16,184 nt of DNA, from NCBI GenBank assembly GCA_050288085.1, contig JBNKDD010000118.1:1-16184 (forward strand), read 5' to 3'. The position numbers were made by a program, and so were the translations under genes. Within the stretch, counting starts at the first letter, position 1; every line of letters starts with the position of its first letter. The notes under the pieces are model-generated. The model was given only the letters and a program-made list of their open reading frames with translations, made no database searches and was not told the DNA's origin. This document shows, in pieces, positions 1 to 16,184 of this stretch. Source of the DNA: Anaerolineae bacterium (lineage in GTDB: Bacteria > Chloroflexota > Anaerolineae > Aggregatilineales > UBA3940).

Positions 1-336
1 TTCGAGCGTGGGGCACATGTCATCTACGGGCCAATGGCAGATGTCCATGTCTCCGGGCATGGCAACCGCGAGGATATTCGTATTATGCCGGAGGCCGTAA
101 ACCCCCGCTTCCTGATCCCGGTTAACGAGCATGATCATCTGGTCGGTGAGCCGCAATTTGTCAGCCGGGGATTTGTGTACTTGAAAGAGGCAGGCGATCT
201 GCTGGACGCAGGCCGCGAGGCAATCAAGCAGCAGTACCATAATGGGGCACGCGACCTGGGCCGTGTGTTGGAGGACTTTTTCTATCGGGAGACTCAGTCA
301 CGGCCCATCGTACTGCCCCGTTACATTCAGGTGTAA
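1..336 (+). CDS. rnj: Ribonuclease J-like metallo-beta-lactamase/beta-CASP RNase, C-terminal fragment (5' end lies outside the window)
   Basis: The frame is open from base 1 (FERGAHVIYGP MADVHVSGHGNREDIRIM...FLIPVNEHDHLV...). The HVSGHG...(F/Y)IPVHGE pattern is the C-terminal His motif region of RNase J/beta-CASP enzymes. Stop codon TAA at 334-336. Confidence 0.6.
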   Translation, partial: FERGAHVIYGPMADVHVSGHGNREDIRIMPEAVNPRFLIPVNEHDHLVGEPQFVSRGFVYLKEAGDLLDAGREAIKQQYHNGARDLGRVLEDFFYRETQSRPIVLPRYIQV

Positions 337-389
337 TATGGCATGGAGCTTCGATAGAGTCCCGGTGCTCGATCTTATCCGTTTTTGGA

Positions 390-2738
390 TTAGTCCGGTG
401 GCAGTCTCCGCAGTTTGTCATACGCAGATTGTGCCTGCTGTGGTTGGTCGCTCAATTCATATGCCTGGGCTAAATGTAGATATAAGTCTCGAAGCTGAGA
501 TTGGACTTCAACGCTGCCGGGCAATTCTTCTTTAGCCAGTTGGAGCGCTTTTTCCAGATGTGCCTTCGCTTCGTTCACGGCAGCGAGGCGGAGCGCTTCT
601 TTCCCGGCAGCCAGGCTGTGGCGAAACGCGACTTCCGCCAGCCCGGCAGCGATCGCATGATAGGCCAACACAGCCTTCGAGCCCCCATCTACCTCAAGGA
701 CACCCAATGCGCGACGATGAAAAAGCCGCCGCCGCGCATCCCCGGCCTCGGTATAGACCACATCACGGATCATATTATGGGTGAATGTGTAAGTACTGGC
801 AGTACCAGTCTGTGCCACTTCAAGCAAGAGCTGCCCGCTGACTAATTCGTCCAGGGCTGGCAGCCCGATATCTTCTGCCAAGTTGGAGATGGCGCACAGG
901 CGCTCGAAAGTAAGCCTCAACTCGAGGACAGCTCCGGCTGCCAGGAGCGAAAATGCGTTCGGGCTGAGGCGGCTCAAACGAGAGCGGAGCACCGCCCGTA
1001 CAGTAGATGGGACGCGAATCGCCTCCCCCAGATCATGCTCCGCATCAACCTCAAAACCCCATTGGCTCTCCCTCAACAGTTTCGGGTGGAGTACCCTACG
1101 CTCGAGCATGTCCTTCAGGGATTCCATCAAATAAAATGGATGTCCGCGAGTTTCGTTGAACACCCACTGGGCGAAATCGGCATCGGAGGGCTCCAGTATG
1201 GACAGCATCATTTGCACTGTATCCTGTTCCTCTAACGATCCCAGCTCAAGATGAAACGGCCCCAATTCACGCCCCATCCGTGCCAGCCACTCAATCAGAT
1301 TTGACAGCCTGGGTTGGACGGGCGGCTGCAAGGCCTCTGAGCGCAGGCTGACCAACAACAGGATCCGCGCTTCGCTCTCTCGCCAGCGGCGGACGGCGTA
1401 CACCAACCAGTCCAGCGTCGCGCTGTCCGCCCACTGTAAATCGTCCACGAACAGCACCAGCGGCGACTGACCAGCCAGGGCCAGCGTCAACTGCACCAGA
1501 GATTCGAAAAGCTGCGTTCGACCGCCATCCACTTCCAAATAAGCGGCAGGCAGCTCAGCGTAAAGTTCGCGTAATTCCGGCAGCAGGTGACTCAACGGGG
1601 CTAACCAGGTTTCCCCTAACACATCCGCCGGTGTGTCTTCCCGATCAATCCAGGGGCGGACAGCCTCGATCAGCGGCTGGTACGACATGCGACTACCACT
1701 CTCAAATGCGCGTCCTTGCAGCACATTGGCTCCCTGGGAAACACTCCAGGCCAGGAATGCCCGAGCCAGCCGGGTTTTGCCAATCCCTGCCTCGCCGCGC
1801 AGCACCACGGTTTGGGGCCGACCTGTGGCAGCATATCCGTAGTGCACCACCAGGGCTTGGTACTCATTTGTGCGCCCTGTGAATAAGTTTCCAAGAAAAG
1901 TAACGGGTGTATCGGGCTGCCGCTGCTGGGGCACAGCGCGACGGGCAGGGTGTTGAGTGCGAATGCGCATAGCCAGTGCCTCTGTGTCTGGTTCTGGCTT
2001 CACGCTCAATTCAGCCGCCAGAATGGTGCGGCAGGCATCATAGGTCCCGAGAGCCTGACCCCGCTCGCCCGCTGCAAAGTGGGCACGCATCTTGCGGCGA
2101 TAGGCAACTTCGTTCAGCGCATCCAGTGAGATCCAGAGCGAGGTGGTCTCGGCTGTAGCAGCAAATTCGCCTCTCGTAAACTGGATTTCTGACAGCCGGT
2201 CGAGGATCAGGTTCAGGCGACGCCGCCAGACTTCGCGCTGGACGTTTGCCCAATCGTCAAAGCCGGGCGCGTCGCCCAGTGAAAACCCGGTGAGAAAATC
2301 GCCACGGTAGCAGGTTATGGCTGAACGCAGCAAGGGCAGGCTGGCCGCATTCTCCGGTTGTACACGGTTGGAGCGGTCGGCACGGGCCAGGGCATAGGCC
2401 TGTTCCACCGTGTGCAGATCAAGATCGATATCGGCGTCCGAATTCAGCGCCAGTGTATGGTGCGTGATAGAGAGGAAGAAGGCCTGGGCTGAACTCAGGG
2501 CGGTTTTCAGGTGACCGAGCGTGTTACGGAGTGACGCGTAGCTGCGCTCCTGGTTTGATTCCGGCCAGAGAAGGGCAGCTAGATGCTCACGCGGTTGTGA
2601 TCCACCCTCAAGTGCCAGATAGATTAGCAACGCCAGTGTTTTACGCGTGGGAAACGTCAGCAGCTTTTCACCAAGACGCACTTCTGGTGGCCCCAGCAAA
2701 TAGAGTTGTAACGATGGTGAATAGCCGGACACGATCAC
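390..2738 (-). CDS. AfsR/SARP-family transcriptional regulator with STAND NTPase domain (OmpR-type wHTH + BTAD + P-loop NB-ARC-like ATPase + C-terminal helical/TPR-like region)
   Basis: The N-terminus LLGPPEVRLGEKLLTFPTRKTLALLIYLAL matches the SARP winged-helix DNA-binding domain, followed by a BTAD-like helical region. Walker A GEAGIGKTRLARAF and Walker B LVLFVDDLQWAD (hhhhDD + LQWAD, typical of AfsR/LuxR-type STAND proteins) are present, then a long helical C-terminus. The first start in frame is GTG at 2738. The true start is uncertain; an alternative is the TTG at codon 14. Confidence 0.8.
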   Translation of the reverse strand: MIVSGYSPSLQLYLLGPPEVRLGEKLLTFPTRKTLALLIYLALEGGSQPREHLAALLWPESNQERSYASLRNTLGHLKTALSSAQAFFLSITHHTLALNSDADIDLDLHTVEQAYALARADRSNRVQPENAASLPLLRSAITCYRGDFLTGFSLGDAPGFDDWANVQREVWRRRLNLILDRLSEIQFTRGEFAATAETTSLWISLDALNEVAYRRKMRAHFAAGERGQALGTYDACRTILAAELSVKPEPDTEALAMRIRTQHPARRAVPQQRQPDTPVTFLGNLFTGRTNEYQALVVHYGYAATGRPQTVVLRGEAGIGKTRLARAFLAWSVSQGANVLQGRAFESGSRMSYQPLIEAVRPWIDREDTPADVLGETWLAPLSHLLPELRELYAELPAAYLEVDGGRTQLFESLVQLTLALAGQSPLVLFVDDLQWADSATLDWLVYAVRRWRESEARILLLVSLRSEALQPPVQPRLSNLIEWLARMGRELGPFHLELGSLEEQDTVQMMLSILEPSDADFAQWVFNETRGHPFYLMESLKDMLERRVLHPKLLRESQWGFEVDAEHDLGEAIRVPSTVRAVLRSRLSRLSPNAFSLLAAGAVLELRLTFERLCAISNLAEDIGLPALDELVSGQLLLEVAQTGTASTYTFTHNMIRDVVYTEAGDARRRLFHRRALGVLEVDGGSKAVLAYHAIAAGLAEVAFRHSLAAGKEALRLAAVNEAKAHLEKALQLAKEELPGSVEVQSQLRDLYLHLAQAYELSDQPQQAQSAYDKLRRLPPD

Positions 2739-2806
2739 ATTCCTTGTAACGCTCTTGAGACGCTACTTCATTATACTGAATTTATGAAGCTCAAAACCAG
2801 ACTTGA
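2684..2806. repeat. Copy 1 of a ~120 bp direct repeat. It spans the first ~18 codons and upstream promoter-like region of the SARP regulator gene.
   Basis: About 85-90% identical to 8590-8712 in the same orientation. The shared core is gagttgtaa(c/t)gatggtgaatagccggacacg(a/c)tcacattccttg..acgctcttgagac.ctacttcattatact.aattta.gaag..caaaacc. Both + strand ORF-track translations end in MVNSRTRSHSL, which confirms the duplication. Confidence 0.75.
2770..2800 (-). promoter_or_regulatory. Promoter-like element for the SARP regulator gene (perfect TATAAT -10 on the minus strand, weak -35 candidates)
   Basis: The minus strand reads ...tggttttgagcttcataaattcagTATAATgaag.... The TATAAT hexamer (plus 2770-2775) lies ~32 nt upstream of the GTG start at 2738. 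The -35 candidates TTGAGC (13 nt spacer) and TTTTGA (15 nt spacer) are suboptimal. The element is conserved in repeat copy 2. Confidence 0.3.
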
Positions 2807-2972
2807 GTCAGCCTGGAACAGGTCATATGAACCGGTTTGGCCGGATAAAAACTAACCCGGTTGACCCGTATTTCCGCCCCCTCAGATGTCAATCGCAATG
2901 AGGTTTACCGGCTCGTAGATGGGGCATTCAAGCTGGTTGTTAGTAAGAGAAACGTTCTGGAGGATACTCTCA

Positions 2973-3356
2973 ATGCCCGGCATTATTCTGACGTTCCCGA
3001 TTGTGACCGGCAAGGTTGAAGCCTGGCGGCGTTTTTGCCAGGAATTAGCCGGTTCTCGGCGGCAAATGTATGAAGCATCTCGCCAGCGGCTGGGTATCAC
3101 GCTTGAGCGGTTGGCGCTGGTAGAGAGCGCCTTCGGATCGGCGGCAGTGACTACTCTGGAAGCCCACGATGTAAGTCAGGCACTGGGCCAAATTATTACA
3201 TCCGACCTTCCATTTGATCACTGGTATCGAGAGAAAATACAGGAGCTGCATGGAGTCAATTTATCCAGGTATGAGGACTTCTCCCAACAAGCACCACCCC
3301 CAGAAAATCAGGAGCTGCTCTTTGAGTGGGTGTTACCTTCTGGCATTGGTGATTGA
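2973..3356 (+). CDS. Hypothetical protein (~127 aa), divergently oriented from the SARP regulator
   Basis: ORF 2919-3356. The likely start is ATG 2973 (MPGIILTFPIVTGKVEAWRRF...), preceded by GGAGGA at 2956-2961 with a 9-11 nt spacing. I recognise no domain. Confidence 0.5.
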   Translation: MPGIILTFPIVTGKVEAWRRFCQELAGSRRQMYEASRQRLGITLERLALVESAFGSAAVTTLEAHDVSQALGQIITSDLPFDHWYREKIQELHGVNLSRYEDFSQQAPPPENQELLFEWVLPSGIGD

Positions 3357-3493
3357 CGCGGCTTAGCTCAAAATCGGCGGGTTGACTAGGGGCACACTCG
3401 ACTGAGAAGCACCGGACGAACGCATCTTGAAACACTATCGATACTTCTAATGGTAACGAATAAGAAACGATTAGTGTGGGAGAAAGAAACCAA

Positions 3494-3772
3494 ATGAATA
3501 CCATTATATGGCTTATCGCAGGGGCGTTTGTCGGCTGGCTCGCAAGCGTCATCATGAGTACCAACAGGCGGCAGGGGCTGGTTATCGACATTATGGCCGG
3601 ACTCGTCGGCGCGTTTCTGGCGGGTTATTTCCTGGCGCCTTTCCTTGGTATCTCGATCATCGATCAGAATAGTTTCAGTATCCCGACGCTGCTCGTATCC
3701 CTCCTGGGCACAGTCATCTTGCTGGCCGTCGTGCGCTTGTTCAACCCCCATGGGCGACGACACGCAGATTAA
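3494..3772 (+). CDS. GlsB/YeaQ/YmgE family (transglycosylase-associated, PF04226-like) small stress membrane protein
   Basis: MNTIIWLIAGAFVGWLASVIMS...GLVIDIMAGLVGAFLAGYF is the characteristic glycine-rich double-TM pattern of this family. The RBS GGAGAAAG lies 8 nt upstream of ATG 3494. Confidence 0.8.
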   Translation: MNTIIWLIAGAFVGWLASVIMSTNRRQGLVIDIMAGLVGAFLAGYFLAPFLGISIIDQNSFSIPTLLVSLLGTVILLAVVRLFNPHGRRHAD

Positions 3773-4002
3773 TGGGGTGGTGGAATACCGGCTGAACAAG
3801 TGATTGATTAGCCTGGCAATGAGCAGCACGCTTCAGAAGCATGAGGCTTCGGCTGGTAGTCGGCAAGAGGTTCAACACGTATCGTAAACACAGATTACAT
3901 CGGCATCTAAAGATTGCAATGGGCGCAGCTGCATGCGCTCTGCGCCTATTGCATGGAATGTAGCACTCCCAATCCCTCGCATCGAAAAAAGAGGAGGCAA
4001 GG

Positions 4003-4374
4003 ATGGAACTCTCAGTCTCAATGATTTTCAGAGCCGGGATTGTCTGGGGGGTTGTGGCGATCTTGCTGGCTATTGTCAGCAGTGTGCTCGCGCCGTCCCT
4101 GACGGTGGTAGCTGGTCTCACACTGGTGACTTTTGCCTTCACGATGTCAGGTATCCACTACGCCGCCAAATCACACAGTGCCTCTTTGAGCAGCGGCCTG
4201 GGTGGTGCGCTGGCAGGTGTGGTGGCCGCCAATCTACTCTTGCTGCTCCGGTTTGTGCCACTGAATCTTCCCGTTCCGGGTGATTCGATGACAGATTTAA
4301 TAGGTACGCTGGTTGTTGGCTTACTGATAGGTGCAGCCGGAGGCCTGGCCTTCAACGTTATCGTACGAAAATAA
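4003..4374 (+). CDS. Small integral membrane protein (about 4 predicted TM helices), function unknown
   Basis: Strong RBS AGGAGG 5 nt upstream of ATG 4003. The protein is hydrophobic and Gly/Ala/Leu-rich throughout (MELSVSMIFRAGIVWGVVAILLAIV...). Confidence 0.6.
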   Translation: MELSVSMIFRAGIVWGVVAILLAIVSSVLAPSLTVVAGLTLVTFAFTMSGIHYAAKSHSASLSSGLGGALAGVVAANLLLLLRFVPLNLPVPGDSMTDLIGTLVVGLLIGAAGGLAFNVIVRK

Positions 4375-4431
4375 AGGAAGCCACCACCTACGATATGCAA
4401 AGTTTCGAGTAAACATAGGAATAAAACAAAC

Positions 4432-4776
4432 ATGAATGATCAAAATCAAGCTCTTAGTAATACAAAGTACTTCTTAGCCGGGTTGCTGGCAGGTGGCCTT
4501 GTTGGCATGGCGACAATGCTGCTGCTGGCACCCCAATCGGGGGAAAAGACCCGTGGCGAGATTCAGCTCAAAGGCATCAAATTGCGCGATCAGGCCACTG
4601 AGACTGCAAAAGGAGCCATGGAGCAGGCTCGCCAGACAACTCAGCAGATCACAGGCGATGTGCGCGAGAAGGCTGAAGAACTCCAGCAGCGCGGACACGA
4701 TTTGCTCGGCGAGCAACGGGAACGCCTGTCCACCTTCGTAGAAGGTAAGAACAAGGACATCGAGGACCCGACTTAA
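4432..4776 (+). CDS. YtxH-like (DUF948) general-stress protein with N-terminal TM anchor
   Basis: KYFLAGLLAGGLVGMATMLLLAPQSGEKTRGEI is followed by a charged, helical, Q/E/R-rich tail. This matches the YtxH signature FxxGxxxGxxxGxLxAPxSGxETR. Confidence 0.7.
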   Translation: MNDQNQALSNTKYFLAGLLAGGLVGMATMLLLAPQSGEKTRGEIQLKGIKLRDQATETAKGAMEQARQTTQQITGDVREKAEELQQRGHDLLGEQRERLSTFVEGKNKDIEDPT

Positions 4777-4876
4777 CAACCGGAGAGCTTTGCATAACTC
4801 TACCTCAGACTGGGGAGGGGACGGGGGACATTCTATAGGGGTCAGGTTATGCGAAGCCCTAAAAGACGAGGATGAC

Positions 4877-5896
4877 ATGGACAGTAAACAGAAAATCTCA
4901 ACTAAGAACAACCTGGTCTGGCGCGAAGCAGTGGCCAGATACCAAAATCCGGATACCTTGCGCAGCACATGGCAGATCATCAATTCAATTGGCCCGTACC
5001 TTATCTTGTGGGTTTTGATGTGGCTTAGTCTGAGCATAAGCTATTGGCTCACTCTGGGACTGGCAGTCGTGGCAGCTGGCTTTATGGTGCGGATCTTCAT
5101 TATTTTCCATGATTGCGGCCACGGATCGTTCTTTAAGTCGAAGAAGGCGAATAAGCTCTGGGGTGGCATTACGGGGATTTTGACCTTTACACCTTTTGAG
5201 CAGTGGCGGCACGATCATGCACTGCATCACGCCTCGGCAGGAGACCTGGACAGACGCGGCTTTGGGGATATCTGGACGCTTACTTACCAGGAATACCTTG
5301 CCCTGCCTCGATTAAAACGGCTTGGATACCGGTTATTCCGCCACCCTCTGGTTATGTTTGGTTTTGGCCCTATATACACATTTGTCATAAAAACGCGATT
5401 CGCAAAACGTCATGATAGCCCACAGGCGCGCAGGAGTGTGCTTATCACCAACCTCGCTTTGCTGGGGATCATCATCTCTGCACATTTCTTAATTGGCCTC
5501 CAGGCCTATATCCTGATCCAACTTCCAATTATGGTAATTGGTGGGGCGGTAGGTGTATGGCTGTTTTACGTACAACACACCTTCGAGCCACCCTACTGGG
5601 AACGTCATACTGAATGGGATTTCACGACAGCAGCATTGCAGGGCAGTTCCTTCTATAAACTGCCCAAAGTGTTACAGTGGTTTACCGGGAATATTGGTAT
5701 TCATCACATTCATCACCTAAGCCCACTCATTCCAAATTACTATCTGGCTCGGTGCCAGGATGAAAACGATATCTTCCACAACATTGAGCCGCTCACCATG
5801 CGGGCCAGCCTCAGGTCGCTGAATATGCGCGTCTGGGATGAAAAATTGGAGAAGATGCTAAGTTTCCGCGAGATGCGGCGACTCTATGATCAATAG
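4877..5896 (+). CDS. des: Membrane acyl-lipid (Delta5-type, Des-like) fatty acid desaturase
   Basis: Three histidine boxes are present: HDCGHGSFF, WRHDHALHHASAGDLDRRG and HHIHHL. TM segments and the overall layout are collinear with Bacillus subtilis Des. The ORF opens at 4790. Alignment to Des favours the ATG at 4877 (MDSKQKIS...). Confidence 0.85.
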   Translation: MDSKQKISTKNNLVWREAVARYQNPDTLRSTWQIINSIGPYLILWVLMWLSLSISYWLTLGLAVVAAGFMVRIFIIFHDCGHGSFFKSKKANKLWGGITGILTFTPFEQWRHDHALHHASAGDLDRRGFGDIWTLTYQEYLALPRLKRLGYRLFRHPLVMFGFGPIYTFVIKTRFAKRHDSPQARRSVLITNLALLGIIISAHFLIGLQAYILIQLPIMVIGGAVGVWLFYVQHTFEPPYWERHTEWDFTTAALQGSSFYKLPKVLQWFTGNIGIHHIHHLSPLIPNYYLARCQDENDIFHNIEPLTMRASLRSLNMRVWDEKLEKMLSFREMRRLYDQ

Positions 5897-6009
5897 CCAT
5901 GTGGCGCTAAAGGCACCACCAGTGATGTCTGCTGATTCTCATTGGTTGAGTGCCTATAGCAATTTGGACACCTATTTTGGTCAAGAGATCTATTAACAAA
6001 GGAAATGCT

Positions 6010-6870
6010 ATGAGAATAATAATTGGCCCACTCTATACCCTGCGACCTTACGAGCGGGGCATCCAGGAAACCCTGGGTAAGTACAGCCGATTTGTGATGC
6101 CTGGGCTGGGCTTTCAAATCCCGCTTGTTCATATCACTCGCGTGCGCGATGTCCGCGAGCATACGATGGATATTGAACCTCAACCGGTGATCACCAAAGA
6201 TAACGTTGAGATTACAGTAGATGGTGTCATGTGGGTGCGCCCCACCGTCGATGAAGAAGGCATCAAGCGCACTTTTTATAACATCGACAATTGGAAGCGA
6301 GCAGTCATCCAGTTGGCAATGACGAATCTGCGTCAGGAGTTTGGCGAATTGTCGCTGGATGAGAGCCTGGTGGCTCGCGAGAAAATTGCCAACAATTTGC
6401 AGCGAATCCTGAACAGCTTCGCTGTCGAATGGGGACTGACTGTCAGCAAGGTAGAAATCCGCCTGATTGACCCCCCCGACGATATCAAAAAGGCCATGCA
6501 TAAACAGAAGACAGCCGAGCAAGAACGGCGTTCCATGAAACTGCTGGCGACGGGTGAGTTCGAGGCCGCCCAACAAGAAAAGTTGGCACTCATCCAGCGT
6601 GCTGAGGGAGAGCGCGAGGCAGTGATTCAAGTAGCCCAGGGCAAGGCTGAGGCCATTCGCCTGGTCAATGAGGCTGCCCACCAATACTTCGTCGGCAATG
6701 CTCAGGCTCTCAAGCAAATGGAGATGGTCGAAACCTCCCTACGTGAGAATGCCAAGGTCGTCATCACTGAACACGGTATCAGCCCGACCCTGCTTCTGGG
6801 CAGCCTGCCGGTCAGTGTACCGAGGGATGGAAACGGTGCTGGAGTTAAGACAAGAGAAATGAAGGAATAG
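6010..6870 (+). CDS. SPFH/band-7 (stomatin/prohibitin-like) membrane microdomain protein
   Basis: YERGIQETLGKYSRFVMPGLGFQIPLVHI...PQPVITKDNVEITVDGVMWVR is followed by a long A/E/Q-rich coiled-coil tail, which together form the canonical SPFH core. The RBS AAGGAAA lies 5 nt upstream of ATG 6010. The ORF opens at 5950. Confidence 0.85.
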   Translation: MRIIIGPLYTLRPYERGIQETLGKYSRFVMPGLGFQIPLVHITRVRDVREHTMDIEPQPVITKDNVEITVDGVMWVRPTVDEEGIKRTFYNIDNWKRAVIQLAMTNLRQEFGELSLDESLVAREKIANNLQRILNSFAVEWGLTVSKVEIRLIDPPDDIKKAMHKQKTAEQERRSMKLLATGEFEAAQQEKLALIQRAEGEREAVIQVAQGKAEAIRLVNEAAHQYFVGNAQALKQMEMVETSLRENAKVVITEHGISPTLLLGSLPVSVPRDGNGAGVKTREMKE

Positions 6871-6898
6871 TTGATGAAAGACGTGAGGAACAAGAGTA

Positions 6899-6985
6899 AT
6901 GGAGACCACCCTGTATGCCATCGCATTATTTGTGATTGTGGCCCTTTCGCTGGTAGCAGTCAGACAGAATAGGGACAGGCGGTAG
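6899..6985 (+). CDS. Putative 28-aa hydrophobic micropeptide (METTLYAIALFVIVALSLVAVRQNRDRR)
   Basis: It sits in the 240 bp gap between the SPFH and radical-SAM genes. GAGGAA lies 8 nt upstream of ATG 6899. It has a single TM-like helix followed by a basic tail. An alternative overlapping 33-aa Cys-rich ORF (6874-6975, MKDVRNKSNGDHPVCHRIICDCGPFAGSSQTE) has its own AAGGAA RBS. Confidence 0.35.
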   Translation: METTLYAIALFVIVALSLVAVRQNRDRR

Positions 6986-7109
6986 CACACACACAAGATC
7001 ACACAGAAGATGAAATGACTTCCGAATACAGGAAGCGGAACGGCTCGAAGCTGAGATAGAGAATCCCGCCAATGACACCTGCTTATGCTCAAATCAGGAG
7101 GAAAAATCG

Positions 7110-8588
7110 ATGAGAATTTTGTTAGTTTACCCTGAGTTCCCGGACACTTTTTGGAGTTTCAAGCATGCGCTCAAGTTTGTCCGCAAAAAGGCGGTTGCAC
7201 CGCCATTAGGCCTGTTGACGGTGGCGGCTATGTTGCCTGCCAGGTGGGAAAAACGGCTGGTTGATCTCAATGTAACCGGCTTGAACCACGAAGACCTGGT
7301 ATGGGCTGACTATGTCTTTATCAGCGCAATGGCCATACAGCGTGATTCGGTTCAAACCGTCATTGCTGAGTGCAAAGAAGTCGGGGTGAAGGTCGTAGCC
7401 GGAGGTCCGTTATTCACAATGGAATATGAGCAATTCCCTGATGTTGATCACCTCGTACTTAATGAAGCTGAATTGACGCTGCCACCCTTTCTGGCAGACC
7501 TGGCTAATGGGTGTGCTCAACCGATCTACACTACAACTGAATACCCGGACATCAGCCAAACTCCAACACCCCTCTGGGAGTTGGTCAATTTCAAACATTA
7601 CGATACGGTCAGCATCCAGTTTTCCCGCGGCTGCCCCTATAACTGTGAGTTCTGCAATGTGACAACCCTATTAGGTCACCGTCCGCGTCTGAAGACCGCT
7701 GCACAGATCATCGCCGAACTGGATGGCCTGTATGACCTGGGCTGGCGAAAAGGTGTCTTCTTTGTGGACGATAACTTTATCGGCAACAAGAAGGAGCTCA
7801 AGTCCACGGTGCTGCCCGCCTTGATCGAATGGCGGAAAGGCAAGGTGGGGATGCCATTTAACACCGAGGCATCCATCAACCTGGCCGACGATCCTGGCCT
7901 GATGCAGCTTATGACAGATGCCGGGTTTACCACAGTTTTTGTTGGCATTGAAACGCCCAACGAAGATAGTTTGATTGAATGCAGCAAGACGCAGAACAAG
8001 GGCCGTGACCTGGTCGAGAGTGTCAAACGACTCCACCGGGCAGGGCTCCAGGTACAGGGCGGCTTCATTGTTGGCTTTGACAGCGATACCCCATCGGTCT
8101 TTCAGCAGCAGATCGATTTCATCCAGCAGAGTGGTGTTGTAACGGCCATGGTAGGGCTACTGCAAGCTCCTCGAGGGACACGTCTACATGAGCGGCTGCA
8201 GCGAGAAGGCCGGATCGCCGATGAATTTTCAGGGGATAATGTGAGTGGCTCGACCAATATCATCCCCGCAATGAACCTGGACACGCTGCGGGAAGGCTAC
8301 CGTGAGATACTCGATCATATTTATACTCCAAAGTTCTATTATGACCGGGTCATCACCTTTCTGCGTGAGTACAAACCACCTCAGATCAAAAGTCCTCTTG
8401 ATTTTCAACACCTGATGGCTTTTTGGCGCTCGATTTATCAACTGGGTATTCGTGGGGCAGAACGTGTGCAGTATTGGAGACTGTTTTTTTGGACTCTATT
8501 CCGGCGTCCGCGGCTATTTCCGCTGGCAATCACACTGGCTATCTATGGTTTCCATTTCCGCAAGGTAGCCGAACTGCATGTAGGCTGA
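7110..8588 (+). CDS. B12-binding domain radical SAM protein with C-terminal DUF4070
   Basis: The N-terminal cobalamin-binding region reads MRILLVYPEFPDTFWSFKHALKFVRKKAVAPPLGLLTVAAM. The rSAM cluster motif CPYNCEFC (CxxxCxxC) is present. The C-terminal FYYDRVITFLREYKPP region is DUF4070-like. Strong RBS AGGAGGA 7 nt upstream of the start. Confidence 0.9.
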   Translation: MRILLVYPEFPDTFWSFKHALKFVRKKAVAPPLGLLTVAAMLPARWEKRLVDLNVTGLNHEDLVWADYVFISAMAIQRDSVQTVIAECKEVGVKVVAGGPLFTMEYEQFPDVDHLVLNEAELTLPPFLADLANGCAQPIYTTTEYPDISQTPTPLWELVNFKHYDTVSIQFSRGCPYNCEFCNVTTLLGHRPRLKTAAQIIAELDGLYDLGWRKGVFFVDDNFIGNKKELKSTVLPALIEWRKGKVGMPFNTEASINLADDPGLMQLMTDAGFTTVFVGIETPNEDSLIECSKTQNKGRDLVESVKRLHRAGLQVQGGFIVGFDSDTPSVFQQQIDFIQQSGVVTAMVGLLQAPRGTRLHERLQREGRIADEFSGDNVSGSTNIIPAMNLDTLREGYREILDHIYTPKFYYDRVITFLREYKPPQIKSPLDFQHLMAFWRSIYQLGIRGAERVQYWRLFFWTLFRRPRLFPLAITLAIYGFHFRKVAELHVG

Positions 8589-8589
8589 A

Positions 8590-8712
8590 GGTGGCCCTGG
8601 TAGATGGAGTTGTAATGATGGTGAATAGCCGGACACGCTCACATTCCTTGCGACGCTCTTGAGACTCTACTTCATTATACTAAATTTAGGAAGTCCAAAA
8701 CCGACGTATAGT
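8590..8712. repeat. Copy 2 of the ~120 bp direct repeat (orphan copy; the SARP-like 5' end is decayed)
   Basis: Aligns to 2684-2806. The minus-strand reading gives (V)SVSGYSPSLQLHLPGPP versus the regulator's MIVSGYSPSLQLYLLGPP, so it is a remnant of a SARP N-terminus and promoter with no gene body behind it. It is followed by a perfect hairpin, AAAACCGAC gtata GTCGGTTTT, at 8697-8719. Confidence 0.75.
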
Positions 8713-8792
8713 CGGTTTTGAGTGAAAGTGGCGAAGGTTCAGTAGATAGTCGAAATCTCATAAATATAGTAACTCTACAAAAGAGGCATAAA

Positions 8793-9197
8793 ATGGCACA
8801 AGATGAGAAGAAGGTAAGTTTTAAACAAAGGTGGAATGAAATTAGACAAAGGTGGGATAAAGCCCGTCCAACGAAAAAGATTGTCTTCTGGATTTCGGTA
8901 GCCGTTAGTATTCTAACGATGATTGTTGGCTTCAGTTGGGGGGGATGGGTTACGAGTAGTAAAGCCGAGCTAATGGCTGAGGAGGCCGTTGTCGAGCGCC
9001 TGTCGTTGATTTGTGTTGACCAGTTTAAGCAAGATCCGGAGACAGAGCAGAAGCTCATAGAGTTTGTCGAAACAAGTTCTTACAAACAAGATGATTATGT
9101 CAGAGATCAAGGTTGGGCGACCATGTTTGGTGATGAGGAGCCCGATAAAAACGTTGCCGACGCCTGTGCAAAACTGATCGCGCAGATCGACCAGTAG
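8793..9197 (+). CDS. Hypothetical protein with one TM helix and an acidic C-terminus
   Basis: ORF 8718-9197. The likely start is ATG 8793 (MAQDEKKVSFKQRWNEI...) with AAGAGG upstream. It has a single hydrophobic segment, IVFWISVAVSILTMIVGFSWGGW. It lies in an AT-richer segment, and I recognise no family. Confidence 0.4.
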   Translation: MAQDEKKVSFKQRWNEIRQRWDKARPTKKIVFWISVAVSILTMIVGFSWGGWVTSSKAELMAEEAVVERLSLICVDQFKQDPETEQKLIEFVETSSYKQDDYVRDQGWATMFGDEEPDKNVADACAKLIAQIDQ

Positions 9198-9452
9198 ACA
9201 AAACAGTCTACCTCAAAATCAGCCTTTCACCAGTTGTCATAGTCCTATGTATCGCATTCACATTACTATGTCTACTCGACTTTCGCCGTTAGTGTAGCCC
9301 TATCTGGAGTTTCGCGTTCTTGCGTCCGTGGAATCGGCGAAACGGCAAATATTGAATATTGGGAAGTACAGGATATTTGTCCAGTGTTTGTTGGTGAGTT
9401 TGATAGTCATGTAGGCTAGTATACCCCTAAATGTCAACAAGACAGATGATGA

Positions 9453-9743
9453 CTCAAGATAATAAATGCAGGGGTGAATGGCCCGGTGATCATTGACAGA
9501 GTAAGGCGCGCCCAGGTAGAAGAAAACGATATGTGCCTGGGCTATGATGTGATGTCGGGTAAGCTTGTCAACATGCTCGAAGCAGGCATTATCGACCCGG
9601 TGAAAGTCACGTGTGGCGCTGTGTCCAATGCGACCAGTATTGCAGCTATGATCCTGACAACCGAGGCATTGGTGACAGACAAGCCTAAAAGGAAGCAGAA
9701 GCAACCCATTAGCCCGAATGGGTACGACGACTTCGATTACTAA
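9453..9743 (+). pseudogene. groEL: Relic of a chaperonin GroEL (Cpn60) C-terminus, ~96 codons, truncated at the 5' side
   Basis: LKIINAGVNGPVIIDRVRRAQVEENDMCLGYDVMSGKLVNMLEAGIIDPVKVTCGAVSNATSIAAMILTTEALVTDKPK is collinear with the GroEL equatorial C-terminal region (...IAENAG.EGSVIV.K.....GYNAATGE.V.M.EAGI.DP.KVTRSAL.NAASVA.L.LTTEA.V.DKP.). An in-frame stop lies immediately upstream at 9450-9452. No GroEL-like sequence is found in any frame of 9300-9450. The tail KRKQKQPISPNGYDDFDY replaces the usual Gly-Met repeat. Confidence 0.65.
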
Positions 9744-9901
9744 TAGGGCTTACGCAGTTGAGTATGGGACAAGGAGCTTAAGCCCTTTGCCCAGGCACAG
9801 CATCAACTTGAATTGCGTGAGTCCTAACCATGTGATCGTAGTATATGAGGTGGGGCAATGGCAGCCCCATGAGTCATTGACAGAATGAGGAGTTGACATC
9901 G

Positions 9902-10030
9902 ATGGCAAACAAAAAAGGCAAGGCCAAACGCAAACCATTATCCAAAGGATATCGCAAGTATGTGCGGCGATTGAAGCAAGAGGCTCGGAAGAACGGCACC
10001 ATTTACCGGGGGAATGTGAGGAACAATTGA
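9902..10030 (+). CDS. Putative 42-aa very basic micro-protein (MANKKGKAKRKPLSKGYRKYVRRLKQEARKNGTIYRGNVRNN)
   Basis: GAGGAG lies 9 nt upstream of ATG 9902. It is preceded by a tandem TTGACA...TTGACA and a 6 bp-stem hairpin (tggggc aatggca gcccca). The product is about 40% Lys/Arg. It is too short to appear in the supplied ORF track. Confidence 0.35.
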   Translation: MANKKGKAKRKPLSKGYRKYVRRLKQEARKNGTIYRGNVRNN

Positions 10031-10318
10031 TTTGATCCGGCGGGGAAGCCTACCTGGGGGATGGCAACCATCACCAGACAGTAAGAATGTTAGAAACTCC
10101 AAGAATACCTGGAAAAGCTCGGCGGTGGTCTGGTGGTGATTCAAGTGGGAGCCGTGACCCAAACTGAGCATAAGAGAAAAGCATTGTGCCGAGAACGTGG
10201 TGCACATGATTCATGCTGCAATTGAAGGGAGATTGCACCCAGTGAAGATGTAACGCTTATGAATATGGTAATGACACTTGTAGAGAGTGGCAAGAGTCTG
10301 AGTGAAGGAGAATGCCTC

Positions 10319-13934: not shown

Positions 13935-15418
13935 TGGTCAAAGATACCGGATCGCAGCCCAGGGTCAAACGTAAACGGGAGAAAATCCTGGGTGATTCCT
14001 CACGTGTCATTACTCGACTTCACCTGCCTGATGACCCGCAACGTATCGAAAAAATCATTCAACGTGTACTCGATTTACCGGATACAACAGCCGAAACACT
14101 GCTTGCCCAGGTGATGTTTGATTTTTCTAATCGGCACGAAGACATCAACGTAGTTTTTAACCGGCATCTGAATAGAGTAAAAGACTATATTGCTGAAGAC
14201 ACAGTACTCAGCGAGACTAAGAAGGCACTTATTGGGGCTTATTTCACTATGGAGTATTCTATTGAATCCGCTGCCCTTTTCAACCCTTCAATCGTTCCCC
14301 ATCCTGACCAAAGTAATGTGCAAAACGGCAGTCTGCGTTTTATTATGAGTCTGAGAGCAACCGGTGAAGGTCACCTGTCGTCGATTGTGTTTCGCAGTGG
14401 TGTACTTGACTCGAATAGCACGATCCTTTTCGACCCACTCAGCGAGTATGTTGTAACCCCCGATGTTTACCTGGACCCGGTTTACGTTCTGCATCTTTTT
14501 CGCCTGAAGCTCAGAGAAATGGGGGCAGATAATGACGTAATGCATCATCTGCTCAACCAACTCCCAGACGAGTTCTCCTATCACAGATTAAGAGAAAACA
14601 TTGAAGACCTTCGCGCAAACCCCGTTTTTTCTGTAGTTCGCCAAAACAGAACCTTTGAGATCATCTTCTGGCTTGCCAATTCCAATTACGAAGTATATTT
14701 CGAACGTGATCATTTGATCTCCGAACGAGTCATCTTTCCTACATCAAAAATTGAAAGTCGTGGTATTGAAGATGCTCGGTTCGTACAGTTCTTCGATGAT
14801 ACTGGCCAGGTAACCTACTATGCAACTTATACAGCTTATAATGGGGTGAGTATTCTCCCCCAGTTGATTGAAACGAAAGACTTCATCAAGTTCAAAATAT
14901 CAACACTTAATGGGAAGGCCGTGCAGAACAAGGGAATGGCACTTTTTCCGCGCAAAGTTCAGGATCGTTATGTAATGCTCTCACGCCAGGATGGAGAAAA
15001 CAACCGCATTATGTTCTCGGACAATATCCATTTCTGGCAAGAGTCTGAAATCATACAGGAGCCCATATGTCCCTGGGAATTAATTCAACTAGGTAACTGT
15101 GGTTCACCTCTTGAAACCAATGAAGGCTGGATTGTACTTACTCATGGTGTGGGACCCATGCGTCAGTATTGCATTGGTGCTGTACTCCTCGATCTTGAAA
15201 ATCCGGCTAAAATTATCGCCCACCTGGAAGAGCCATTGCTGGTCCCTCACGAGGAAGAACGCGAAGGATATGTACCTAATGTCGTTTATTCCTGTGGATC
15301 ACTTATCCACAATGGTGAGTTAATAATCCCCTATGCCATGTCCGATTTCATGTCTGGTATAGCAACTGTGAGAGTAGATGAGTTGATACGCTGCATGCAA
15401 CCGATTGGGGTCAGTTAG
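13934..15418 (+). CDS. GH130-like (PF04041, formerly DUF377) beta-propeller glycoside phosphorylase/hydrolase with ~250-aa N-terminal extension
   Basis: The C-terminal ~240 aa (GIEDARFVQF..., YYATYTAYNG, NKGMALFPRKVQDRYVML, EGWIVLTHGVG...YCIGAVLLDLENPAKII, NVVYSCG, IPYAMSD) are collinear with GH130 mannoside phosphorylase motifs (EDPR, Y.TYTA, NKN.ALFP.KI.GKY.ML.R, T.EGW...YHG, LLDL.DP, NVVF..G, YYG.AD). ATG 13934 overlaps the upstream TGA (TTGATGG), which indicates translational coupling. Confidence 0.7.
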   Translation: MVKDTGSQPRVKRKREKILGDSSRVITRLHLPDDPQRIEKIIQRVLDLPDTTAETLLAQVMFDFSNRHEDINVVFNRHLNRVKDYIAEDTVLSETKKALIGAYFTMEYSIESAALFNPSIVPHPDQSNVQNGSLRFIMSLRATGEGHLSSIVFRSGVLDSNSTILFDPLSEYVVTPDVYLDPVYVLHLFRLKLREMGADNDVMHHLLNQLPDEFSYHRLRENIEDLRANPVFSVVRQNRTFEIIFWLANSNYEVYFERDHLISERVIFPTSKIESRGIEDARFVQFFDDTGQVTYYATYTAYNGVSILPQLIETKDFIKFKISTLNGKAVQNKGMALFPRKVQDRYVMLSRQDGENNRIMFSDNIHFWQESEIIQEPICPWELIQLGNCGSPLETNEGWIVLTHGVGPMRQYCIGAVLLDLENPAKIIAHLEEPLLVPHEEEREGYVPNVVYSCGSLIHNGELIIPYAMSDFMSGIATVRVDELIRCMQPIGVS

Positions 15419-15649
15419 ATTCCGTTGCTGTATATGGGAACGATAGATAATAAAAAAGGGCCATGTGAAATGGGCGTAGGGTACAAAAAAATGGTAGTCA
15501 TGTGAGATTATCACCGCCCCCTGACGAGAAAACGGGGGTGAGGAGAAGGTCTCGGATCGACCAAATGAAATCGGTAAGCCCCAGCGCCATCGCCGGCGTC
15601 TGGGGGTGATACTTTTTTTGCCCTGAGGTTCAGGTAAGGCCTGTCGCAG

Positions 15650-16184
15650 TGAGCGATGAGGGCGGCACCAGTTGTAGACAGTTACCCCCCACCAGCCGAG
15701 CGCCAGTTTGGTGTCTGAGCGATGGGCGAAGGCTAGCGAACGACGGACCTGATGAGCGCTCATGCGACGGGCCGTGCCATTGCGACGTTCAATGGCCGAG
15801 GTGTTGGGTTTGGCATAGCCTAGCCAGCGCAGAGTCTGATGAACGCGAGTGCGTGAGCCATGTGTGTAACGGATCGTGGTCTCCACGACACGACTGCCCT
15901 CTCGATGCTTGATAATCTGGACGTGGGCCAAGCTGCGCGGGATACGATAACGCAGCGCTGGAAAACGTCCCCGACTGCCCTGCCGACTGGGACGGTAGGG
16001 TTGCCCAAAAATCTCCGGGAACAGAGTCGCATAACTGGCATCACCGTCGGTGAACAGCACCAGTTTGTGACGATTAGCCAGGCGGCTGGCTCCGTCCTCC
16101 AGCAAGCGAGGGTGTAAGATTTTATGTGTAAATGGCATGGGGTAAAACAATGGAAAAGAAGGAGAAAAAACCATGCCAGAAGAA
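15650..16184 (-). mobile_element. IS1-family DDE transposase gene (partial in window; possibly a remnant)
   Basis: The minus-strand ORF 15320-16174 continues open past the window end. The segment VLFTDGDASYATLF...NTSAIERRNGTARRMSAHQVRRSLAFAHRSDTKLALGWWGVTVYNWCRPH is collinear with the IS1 InsB C-terminus (W.TDGW.LYE ... [40 protein letters not shown]). The distal ~115 aa of the ORF is low-complexity and probably not coding. A possible terminal inverted-repeat-like sequence, GGTGATACTTTTTTTGCC, lies at 15605-15622. Confidence 0.5.

Follow-up and report, generated by a model that had tools for sequence, protein, structure and literature searches.

Do the genes around a B12-type radical S-adenosylmethionine (SAM) enzyme in an Anaerolineae genome form a lipid-remodelling pathway, or does the enzyme stand by itself among stress genes? 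The question is raised by a 16,184-nt stretch of DNA (contig JBNKDD010000118.1 of an Anaerolineae bacterium, hereafter the window), on the plus strand of which a Des-type acyl-lipid desaturase (Des; 4877–5896), an SPFH/Band_7 protein (6010–6870) and the radical SAM enzyme (rSAM; 7110–8588) follow one another. Genes were called from a listing of open reading frames (ORFs) and from profile searches (Pfam and NCBIfam); loci compared with the window are labelled with L-numbers (L003, L088 and so on). A first-pass annotation had joined the three genes, together with a tiny transmembrane (TM) peptide encoded between the last two, into a coordinated lipid module preceded by membrane stress proteins. 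All three genes are present and confirmed by Pfam matches. However, the conserved unit is the rSAM alone, with a statistically real tendency to adjoin SPFH, cold-shock and small stress-protein genes. We tentatively read the region from 2.9 to 9.2 kb as a loosely linked stress/cold membrane neighbourhood around an rSAM that may modify lipids, and not as the steps of one pathway, a reading that we hold to be possible rather than probable.

The radical SAM enzyme and its orthogroup

The rSAM is a 492-residue protein whose gene is preceded, 8 nt upstream, by a strong AGGAGG ribosome-binding site. It matches three Pfam families above their cut-offs: B12-binding (PF02310; 38.1 bits, cut-off 32.1), Radical_SAM (PF04055; 58.1 bits, cut-off 29.5) and DUF4070 (137.9 bits). 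The CxxxCxxC motif (C175/C179/C182) is invariant in 95 homologues and, with the (beta/alpha)6 partial TIM barrel, places the protein in the radical SAM superfamily. A hydropathy scan of the rSAM found no TM segment, and the enzyme is predicted to be soluble or peripheral.

An AlphaFold2 model computed from a 95-sequence alignment has a pLDDT of 89.8 and a pTM of 0.88; an earlier model, from 35 sequences of 78–97% identity, was poor (pLDDT 59) and was not used. The best solved-structure match, both by sequence (E = 1.8e-9) and in Foldseek (E = 2.5e-19; TM-scores 0.68/0.73), is AprD4, the apramycin 1,2-diol dehydratase (PDB 6fd2), followed in Foldseek by MgmA, CysS, OxsB, TsrM and TokK, and then by MiaB and RimO; every Foldseek match is a radical SAM enzyme. 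No Tes/GDGT-MAS chain (GDGT, glycerol dialkyl glycerol tetraether) was among the PDB sequence matches. AprD4 and the rSAM share the layout of an N-terminal Rossmann domain and a radical SAM barrel. They differ in that identity is only 19%, that AprD4 is a dehydratase acting on an aminoglycoside within a biosynthetic cluster, and that the rSAM carries the signature of an additional, C-terminal helical domain, DUF4070. An N-terminal Rossmann-type B12-binding domain, as expected of class B radical SAM enzymes, is found by PF02310 and superposes on MgmA, CysS, OxsB, TsrM and TokK. The modelled layout is thus of class B type, from which cobalamin use and methyl transfer may be inferred; the fold does not guarantee either, because its best match is a dehydratase and not a methylase. 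We know of no sequence motif in class B enzymes that is diagnostic of cobalamin binding.

The enzyme is not rare. A word-indexed protein search returned at least 8000 proteins at E <= 1e-10, the best 120 of which are 78–97% identical to the rSAM and nearly all exactly 492 residues long. A scan of species-representative genomes found at least 590 relatives; the top 80 (64–79% identical) come from Anaerolineae and other Chloroflexota, Desulfobacterota, the anammox genera Brocadia, Kuenenia and Scalindua, Pirellulales, Sedimentisphaerales, Latescibacterota, Acetothermia and others. In a library clustered at 50% identity, the rSAM scores 674 bits against its own cluster and 507 bits against the next (49% identity), after which comes a long tail of paralogues at 36–49%. 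By these sequence comparisons the family is a tight orthogroup, with members 59–97% identical, inside a large superfamily. Thousands of near-full-length relatives, at least 59% identical, occur in metagenomes of anoxic sediments, groundwater and bioreactors, and the annotations that the relatives carry in their sources are generic. The gene families concerned were already known; what is new is the delineation of an abundant, conserved HpnP-like orthogroup in anaerobes.

The three-domain architecture is the one described for HpnP, the hopanoid C-2 methylase, and for several uncharacterised ‘HpnP-like’ clades, the function of which was stated to be unknown; the same study places HpnP itself almost only in aerobes (Hoshino et al. 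2023, PMC10697835). Like HpnP, the rSAM is encoded by a stand-alone gene that belongs to no conserved operon, and the homologues of about 530 residues in hopanoid-producing Alphaproteobacteria and Cyanobacteria are 36–42% identical to it over their full length. However, nearly all carriers of HpnP are aerobes with squalene–hopene cyclase, whereas the orthogroup resides mostly in anaerobes (Anaerolineae, Desulfobacterota, anammox bacteria and Sedimentisphaerales); the rSAM has 492 rather than about 530 residues, and outside the orthogroup its closest relatives reach no more than 49% identity. A squalene–hopene cyclase gene is absent from the 16-kb window and from its 22-kb relative L088. The mainly anaerobic hosts, and the identity of at most 42% to homologues in hopanoid producers, argue, indirectly, against placing the rSAM in the HpnP clade itself.

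Genes that recur beside the enzyme

The surroundings of the rSAM were compared across 164 loci from two independent sets, 84 non-redundant genome loci and 80 metagenome loci seeded with a Thermodesulfobacteriota orthologue. A hidden Markov model for each neighbour was scanned against all ORFs, and occurrences within 2.5 kb of the rSAM (near; 617 kb in total) were set against those at 2.5–10 kb (far; 991 kb). Four families are enriched: SPFH (15 near, 0 far; P = 5.7e-7), cold-shock proteins (Csp; 17 near, 0 far; P = 8.5e-8), a small Zn-ribbon protein (9 near, 0 far; P = 1.8e-4) and p132, a baeRF-like protein (14 near, 4 far; P = 7.8e-4). Des is not (1 near, 2 far; not significant). The recurrent adjacency of desaturase, SPFH and rSAM genes implied by the first-pass annotation therefore reduces to a SPFH–rSAM pair, present in 15 of the 164 loci. 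This quantitative link of the rSAM to SPFH, Csp, baeRF-like and Zn-ribbon genes, and to the GlsB genes described below, is new and points to a role in cold or stress.

The SPFH–rSAM pair is the evolutionarily recurrent core of the neighbourhood. All SPFH copies near the rSAM lie within 2.3 kb of it, in Chloroflexota, Desulfobacterota and Planctomycetota, and the loci concerned represent at least seven lineages when the rSAM is clustered at 80% identity. Several SPFH subtypes are involved: a form without TM segments, HflK/C-like pairs and a NfeD–stomatin pair. The protein of the window is of the first kind. Its Band_7 domain (PF01145; 121.5 bits, cut-off 23.6) is followed by a coiled-coil-like region rich in Ala and Glu, as in the SPFH family (stomatin, HflK/HflC and flotillin) and in NfeD–stomatin operons, and orthologues 83–91% identical to it lie directly 5′ of the rSAM in L003, L006 and L008. 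The largest Kyte–Doolittle average over 19 residues is 1.22 with either start codon, no segment reaches 1.6, and a TM helix or hairpin is therefore not predicted; the same scan found TM segments in Des and in four other membrane proteins of the window (GlsB, a four-TM protein, YtxH and orf134, all described below). Thus, the window protein and its orthologues in L003, L006 and L008 differ from stomatin, HflK/HflC and flotillin scaffolds, which have an N-terminal membrane anchor or hairpin. The window protein also lacks a NfeD partner and scores only 63 bits against the HflK cut-off of 159. Elsewhere the rSAM does follow a canonical NfeD–SPFH pair (L042) and adjoins HflK/C-like tandem pairs (L043 and L065). 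Membership in the SPFH family stands, whereas the microdomain-scaffold role ascribed to this protein, which has no TM segment, is carried over from the family label.

The Csp (CSD) genes lie 120–1200 nt from the rSAM and, in 16 of the 17 loci, upstream of it on the same strand; none occurs in the more distant flanks. The loci (L049, L056, L057, L064, L067, L078, L110, L154, L160 and L178 among them) belong to Desulfobacterota, anammox bacteria and other hosts outside the Chloroflexi. In the window itself, two small stress-protein genes precede Des on the plus strand: a GlsB/YeaQ/YmgE-type membrane protein with three hydrophobic segments (3494–3772; Transgly_assoc, PF04226, 36 bits) and a YtxH-like general-stress protein with an N-terminal TM helix (4432–4776; PF12732, 53.7 bits). 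GlsB abuts the rSAM, directly upstream of it, in seven loci (L002, L011, L013, L015, L131, L164 and L170) and is also common further upstream in Anaerolineae. The upstream stress-membrane genes that the first-pass annotation had noted are thus confirmed by Pfam, and its picture of a stress unit is supported and extended by the recurrence of Csp, GlsB, YtxH, CsbD, DUF5661 and the baeRF-like protein beside the rSAM.

The p132 family comprises proteins of about 130 residues (MKKE.GLWIDH...) with a sub-threshold match to baeRF_family10 (E = 0.057; release-factor-like). Its genes directly flank the rSAM in Chloroflexota, in a Pirellulales metagenome-assembled genome and in an unclassified bacterium (L005, L014, L021, L077, L082, L113 and others). 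The Zn-ribbon protein has 70–80 residues and four cysteines (CPxC...CxCGERI.YW) and is confined to Anaerolineae loci, the window not being one of them. In seven of nine loci (L007, L008, L012, L017, L137, L141 and L156) only a few bases separate the end of its ORF from the start of the rSAM; in the other two, L014 and L016, the upstream distances are 0.75 and 1.4 kb. The protein may serve as an electron donor of the rubredoxin type or as a substrate. In about six Anaerolineae loci the rSAM is accompanied by a PAP2 gene and a DAGK/YegS gene, a lipid phosphatase/kinase pair. Downstream of the rSAM, the single-TM hypothetical protein orf134 (8793–9197, plus strand; TM helix at residues 30–48, no Pfam match) has homologues that adjoin the rSAM in L003, L117 and L056. 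Homologues of a 766-residue GT4 glycosyltransferase encoded further 3′ in the window are also found near the rSAM in L082, L041 and L151.

About 490 rSAM neighbours, obtained by greedy ORF calling and Pfam searches, fall into several hundred Pfam families with no dominant partner; the near/far comparison by hidden Markov models told more. Such a variable gene context fits a stand-alone enzyme that acts on a general constituent of the cell.

Candidate substrates of the enzyme

A lipid is a plausible substrate, by analogy with relatives of the enzyme and by the company it keeps. The idea is based, first, on the precedents of HpnP and HpnR, which methylate hopanoids, and of the archaeal Grs, Gmm and Ted enzymes, which act on lipid tails and, second, on the recurrence of SPFH, PAP2 and YegS as neighbours and on the genes beside plasmid-borne paralogues. 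Six such paralogues (DUF4070 rSAMs of about 530 residues, about 40% identical) were inspected, and three adjoin lipid genes: an acyl-CoA desaturase on Chroococcidiopsis plasmid pB (L095), a fatty acyl-AMP ligase on Acaryochloris pREC3 (L097) and a lipid A lauroyl acyltransferase on Bradyrhizobium pCB82_1 (L098). The copies in acetic acid bacteria are solitary genes amid mobile elements, and no NCBIfam equivalog was matched by the plasmid-borne homologues. Homologues of the rSAM do, then, occur beside SPFH and lipid-metabolism genes, and the first-pass suggestion of a lipid substrate survives in this weaker form.

The archaeal precedents are instructive in chemistry and in setting. In archaea, lipid tails are methylated, cyclised or desaturated by B12-dependent rSAMs, and membrane stress induces the methylation (PMC13459092; 10.1101/2025.10.20.683597). 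The ring synthases GrsA and GrsB, the Gmm/GDGT methylases and the tetraether desaturase Ted, which introduces double bonds independently of O2, are, like the rSAM, of class B type and act on inert hydrocarbon tails (PMC11214058; PMC13459092; 10.1101/2025.10.20.683597). However, their substrates are archaeal isoprenoid tetraethers and the window enzyme is bacterial; the relationship considered here is the shared superfamily, and tetraether genes (tes, mss and gms) are absent from among the neighbours of the window enzyme. In bacteria, methylated hopanoids are tied to survival in stationary phase and under stress (review PMC13459092).

We suggest the following mechanism. The rSAM would reductively cleave SAM at its [4Fe-4S] cluster, and the resulting radical would attack a hydrophobic constituent of the membrane, removing hydrogen from one of its unactivated carbons. 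Most likely that carbon would then be methylated via methyl-cobalamin, the kind of reaction catalysed by HpnP, by HpnR and by the Gmm/GDGT methylases of archaea, although the radical might also lead elsewhere, for example to desaturation. The enzyme may in this way tune the membrane under cold or general stress in organisms that often have no O2 for desaturases to use, with SPFH as an associated membrane-organising partner. Stated for the whole 492-residue orthogroup, the proposal is of an O2-independent bacterial lipid-tail modifier, working by cobalamin-dependent C-methylation or by Ted-like desaturation, that serves homeoviscous adaptation to cold and stress together with an SPFH partner; in this specific form we regard it as speculative and rather unlikely. 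Were it true, the rSAM would be the anaerobic functional counterpart of the desaturase that adjoins it in the window, used by Chloroflexota, Desulfobacterota, anammox Planctomycetes and others, and could be the missing source of some of the methyl-branched or otherwise modified bacterial lipids that serve as sediment biomarkers. B12-type rSAMs have recently solved several long-standing puzzles of archaeal and hopanoid lipid chemistry. Our literature searches found no B12-rSAM that makes mid-chain methyl fatty acids, and no comparable B12-rSAM for ordinary membrane lipids of bacteria in anaerobes.

Several observations weigh against a membrane-stress neighbourhood with a lipid-modifying enzyme at its centre. 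About 80% of the loci carry none of the recurrent neighbours, and the cold-shock proteins, RNase II and the release-factor-like p132 would suit a role in RNA or translation just as well as one at the membrane. Membrane-spanning segments are lacking in both the rSAM and the SPFH protein. The closest solved structure is a diol dehydratase of an aminoglycoside, which leaves methyl transfer and cobalamin use unassured; to our knowledge, the B12-like domain of AprD4 binds no cobalamin. The rSAM scores far under every curated NCBIfam cut-off (PhpK 88 against 600, HpnJ 74 against 578, rSAM_ladder_B12 70 against 360, BchE 52 against 481 and HpnR 40 against 650), and our searches found no characterised orthologue and no known substrate. 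Finally, the genes of the block are co-directional with gaps of 100–240 nt, and the scans lend no support to their co-transcription: a terminator scan predicted no plus-strand terminator between block genes, and promoter and terminator scans were uninformative, at background level.

Among the alternatives, an action on RNA or on a ribosome-associated protein survives best, although it too is unlikely. The rSAM would then be a cold-shock or translation-stress enzyme sharing a cold or stationary-phase regulon with Csp, RNase II and p132, and SPFH, GlsB and Des would be stress genes that are co-regulated with it but biochemically unconnected. Csp adjoins the rSAM more often than any other family does (17 loci, upstream on the same strand in 16 of them), and in several phyla the baeRF-like p132 is its immediate neighbour. 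RNB/RNase II is found in the vicinity in about nine loci, and the structural matches include MiaB and RimO, enzymes of tRNA and ribosomal-protein modification. Several of these points have a weaker side. The likeness to MiaB and RimO is limited to the generic core of Rossmann domain and barrel (TM-score about 0.55), the RNB adjacency occurs in Anaerolineae only and looks like inherited synteny, and the match that relates p132 to release factors falls below threshold. Moreover, HpnP, the sole characterised family of this architecture, acts on a lipid, and we know of no enzyme with B12-binding and DUF4070 domains that acts on RNA.

That the rSAM modifies a peptide or protein, for instance a small gene-encoded substrate such as the Zn-ribbon protein or the putative micropeptide of the window, is less probable still. 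Many class B rSAMs are methylases of ribosomally synthesized and post-translationally modified peptides (RiPPs; PMC9204698), and the rSAM has weak NCBIfam matches to the RiPP enzymes ApyD and rSAM_ocin_1. The close coupling of the Zn-ribbon ORF to the rSAM start in seven of the nine carrier loci would suit a substrate; it would equally suit an electron donor, and the gene is present in about 5% of loci, from one Anaerolineae subclade (rSAM identities 73–93%), and missing from the window. Among the approximately 490 neighbours there is no RiPP accessory family, that is, no protease, transporter or leader-recognition (RRE) gene. Identities of 60–80% across phyla without a conserved co-encoded substrate likewise speak against a RiPP system.

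The micropeptide of the window is not supported as a gene. The tiny TM peptide reported there is a hydrophobic ORF of 28 codons (6899–6985, plus strand; METTLYAIALFVIVALSLVAVRQNRDRR), and an ORF of that length is expected by chance in the 240-nt spacer. The L003 version (90% DNA identity) differs by three non-synonymous and one or two synonymous changes and is cut short by a premature stop; in L006 the SPFH–rSAM spacing is about 25 nt and the ORF is absent, and in L008 the Zn-ribbon gene fills the spacer instead. It overlaps a Cys/His-rich ORF of 32 codons in a different frame (6874–6972; MKDVRNKSNGDHPVCHRIICDCGPFAGSSQTE) that begins 4 nt past the SPFH stop codon and is retained at full length in L003. 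The two ORFs are equally plausible and neither is preferred.

The desaturase and the rest of the window

The desaturase (FA_desaturase, 106 bits) is a membrane-bound, di-iron, O2-dependent enzyme of the Des type. It matches the NCBIfam Delta5 DesA model (NF052548) end to end at 444.6 bits, below the equivalog cut-off of 500, and its regiospecificity is therefore not assigned. Bacillus subtilis Des, to which this model refers, shares with it three His boxes (HDCGH, HDHALHH and HHIHH in the window protein) and at least four hydrophobic segments, and cold-shock-type genes (CSD and RRM_1) adjoin the orthologues of the window Des. The window gene differs from B. subtilis Des in lacking adjacent DesK/DesR two-component genes and in its score under the cut-off.

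Two close relatives document the history of this gene. L088, located through the desaturase sequence, is 99.6% identical over window positions 292–10118, with the same gene order, and the Des copy in L088 and L089 is 100% identical. L003, the nearest relative beyond it (90–92% DNA identity; rSAM 97% identical), follows the window collinearly throughout, save that positions 4907–5941 have given way to two genes encoding a 132-residue, weakly baeRF-like protein and a DUF5661 protein; the former (p132, L003 6713–7111) takes the position of Des. L003 nevertheless keeps the ribosome-binding site and the first nine codons of Des. These codons match the way in which independent Des orthologues begin, so the common ancestor of the window and L003 had Des, and L003 lost it by deletion; the same evidence led us to reject a recent insertion of Des into the window. 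At L003 6512–6718, a diverged 127-nt piece of an SPFH 3′ end (83% identical; a copy of window 6753–6879) comes after the nine-codon Des remnant; the baeRF-like gene, the DUF5661 gene and an intact SPFH gene are next in line. The stretch preserves traces of past deletions and duplications within the island.

Elsewhere, Des and the rSAM keep separate company. Des orthologues 70–77% identical to that of the window lie in CSD–Des–RRM_1 settings with no SPFH or rSAM gene nearby, and the rSAM occurs without Des in L084 and L087 (rSAM 83–90% identical) and in L006 and L008 (78–79%). Within 2.5 kb of the rSAM, a Des homologue is found in the window's own lineage only, and at 3–5.5 kb in two other loci. 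Des and the rSAM thus associate with cold-shock genes independently of each other, which agrees with the membrane/cold-stress unit proposed at first pass. The desaturase is a dispensable, lineage-specific and incidental neighbour with cold-shock affiliations of its own, and a des–rSAM pathway should not be presumed. Its restriction to one lineage, and its dispensability there, rule out an obligate pathway, which would also be biochemically implausible, because the desaturase requires O2 and most hosts of the rSAM live strictly without it.

These data bear on the strongest form of the original proposal, in which des, SPFH, micropeptide and rSAM would be an obligate lipid-remodelling operon, in which one of the two enzymes, Des or the rSAM, would make the substrate of the other and SPFH and the peptide would bring the complex together. 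The genes do run in one direction at short intervals, no terminator is predicted between them, L088 has them in the same order, the Des remnant in L003 makes the arrangement older than the split between L003 and the window, and the Chroococcidiopsis paralogue adjoins an acyl-CoA desaturase. Nevertheless, with Des beside the rSAM in 1 of 164 loci and deleted from a close relative that kept SPFH and rSAM, with Des orthologues that never adjoin the rSAM, with a micropeptide that is not conserved and with mostly strictly anaerobic hosts, where no substrate can come from a desaturase that depends on O2, this operon is largely refuted by the comparative data and we consider it very improbable.

Two further genes stand upstream of Des on the plus strand, both without a Pfam match. 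The first encodes a conserved hypothetical protein (orf127/145; 2973–3356), called with 127 residues in relatives although its ORF could begin at 2919, and the second a four-TM membrane protein, TM123, recognized by hydropathy and belonging to no family (4003–4374). Orthologues of both are found in L003, L084 and L087. An Rfam search of the window found no RNA family.

Past the block, the window encodes two GT4 glycosyltransferases and a GH130 enzyme that are unrelated to the finding. The window and L088 diverge abruptly beyond about 10.1 kb, where the former continues into these GT4/GT4/GH130 genes and the latter into genes for a sigma-70 factor and a Na+/H+ exchanger; this is a strain-level variable region. 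An Arg-rich ORF of 284 residues on the minus strand (15320–16174), which overlaps the 3′ end of the GH130 gene and has no Pfam match, looks like a degraded mobile element or a spurious ORF.

The whole stress-gene/rSAM block is bracketed by a 113-nt direct repeat, the plus-strand copies of which are 88% identical and both kept in L003 and L088. Copy 1 (2686–2798) covers the 5′ end of a SARP-type regulator gene and the divergent promoter region 5′ of orf127/145; copy 2 (8590–8702) lies directly after the rSAM stop codon, 5′ of orf134. The repeat suggests a duplicated promoter/operator region or a past rearrangement. The regulator (390–2738, minus strand) combines a BTAD domain (69.5 bits) with an AAA_16 STAND ATPase domain (81.3 bits), is divergent from the stress-gene block and is conserved in L003 and L088. 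Fragments of a SARP N-terminus, 69–77% identical, also occur on the opposite strand 600–1200 nt upstream of the rSAM on the short metagenome contigs L130, L147 and L137, a hint that a divergent pair of SARP and rSAM may predate the present layout and that the rSAM may be under the control of the regulator.

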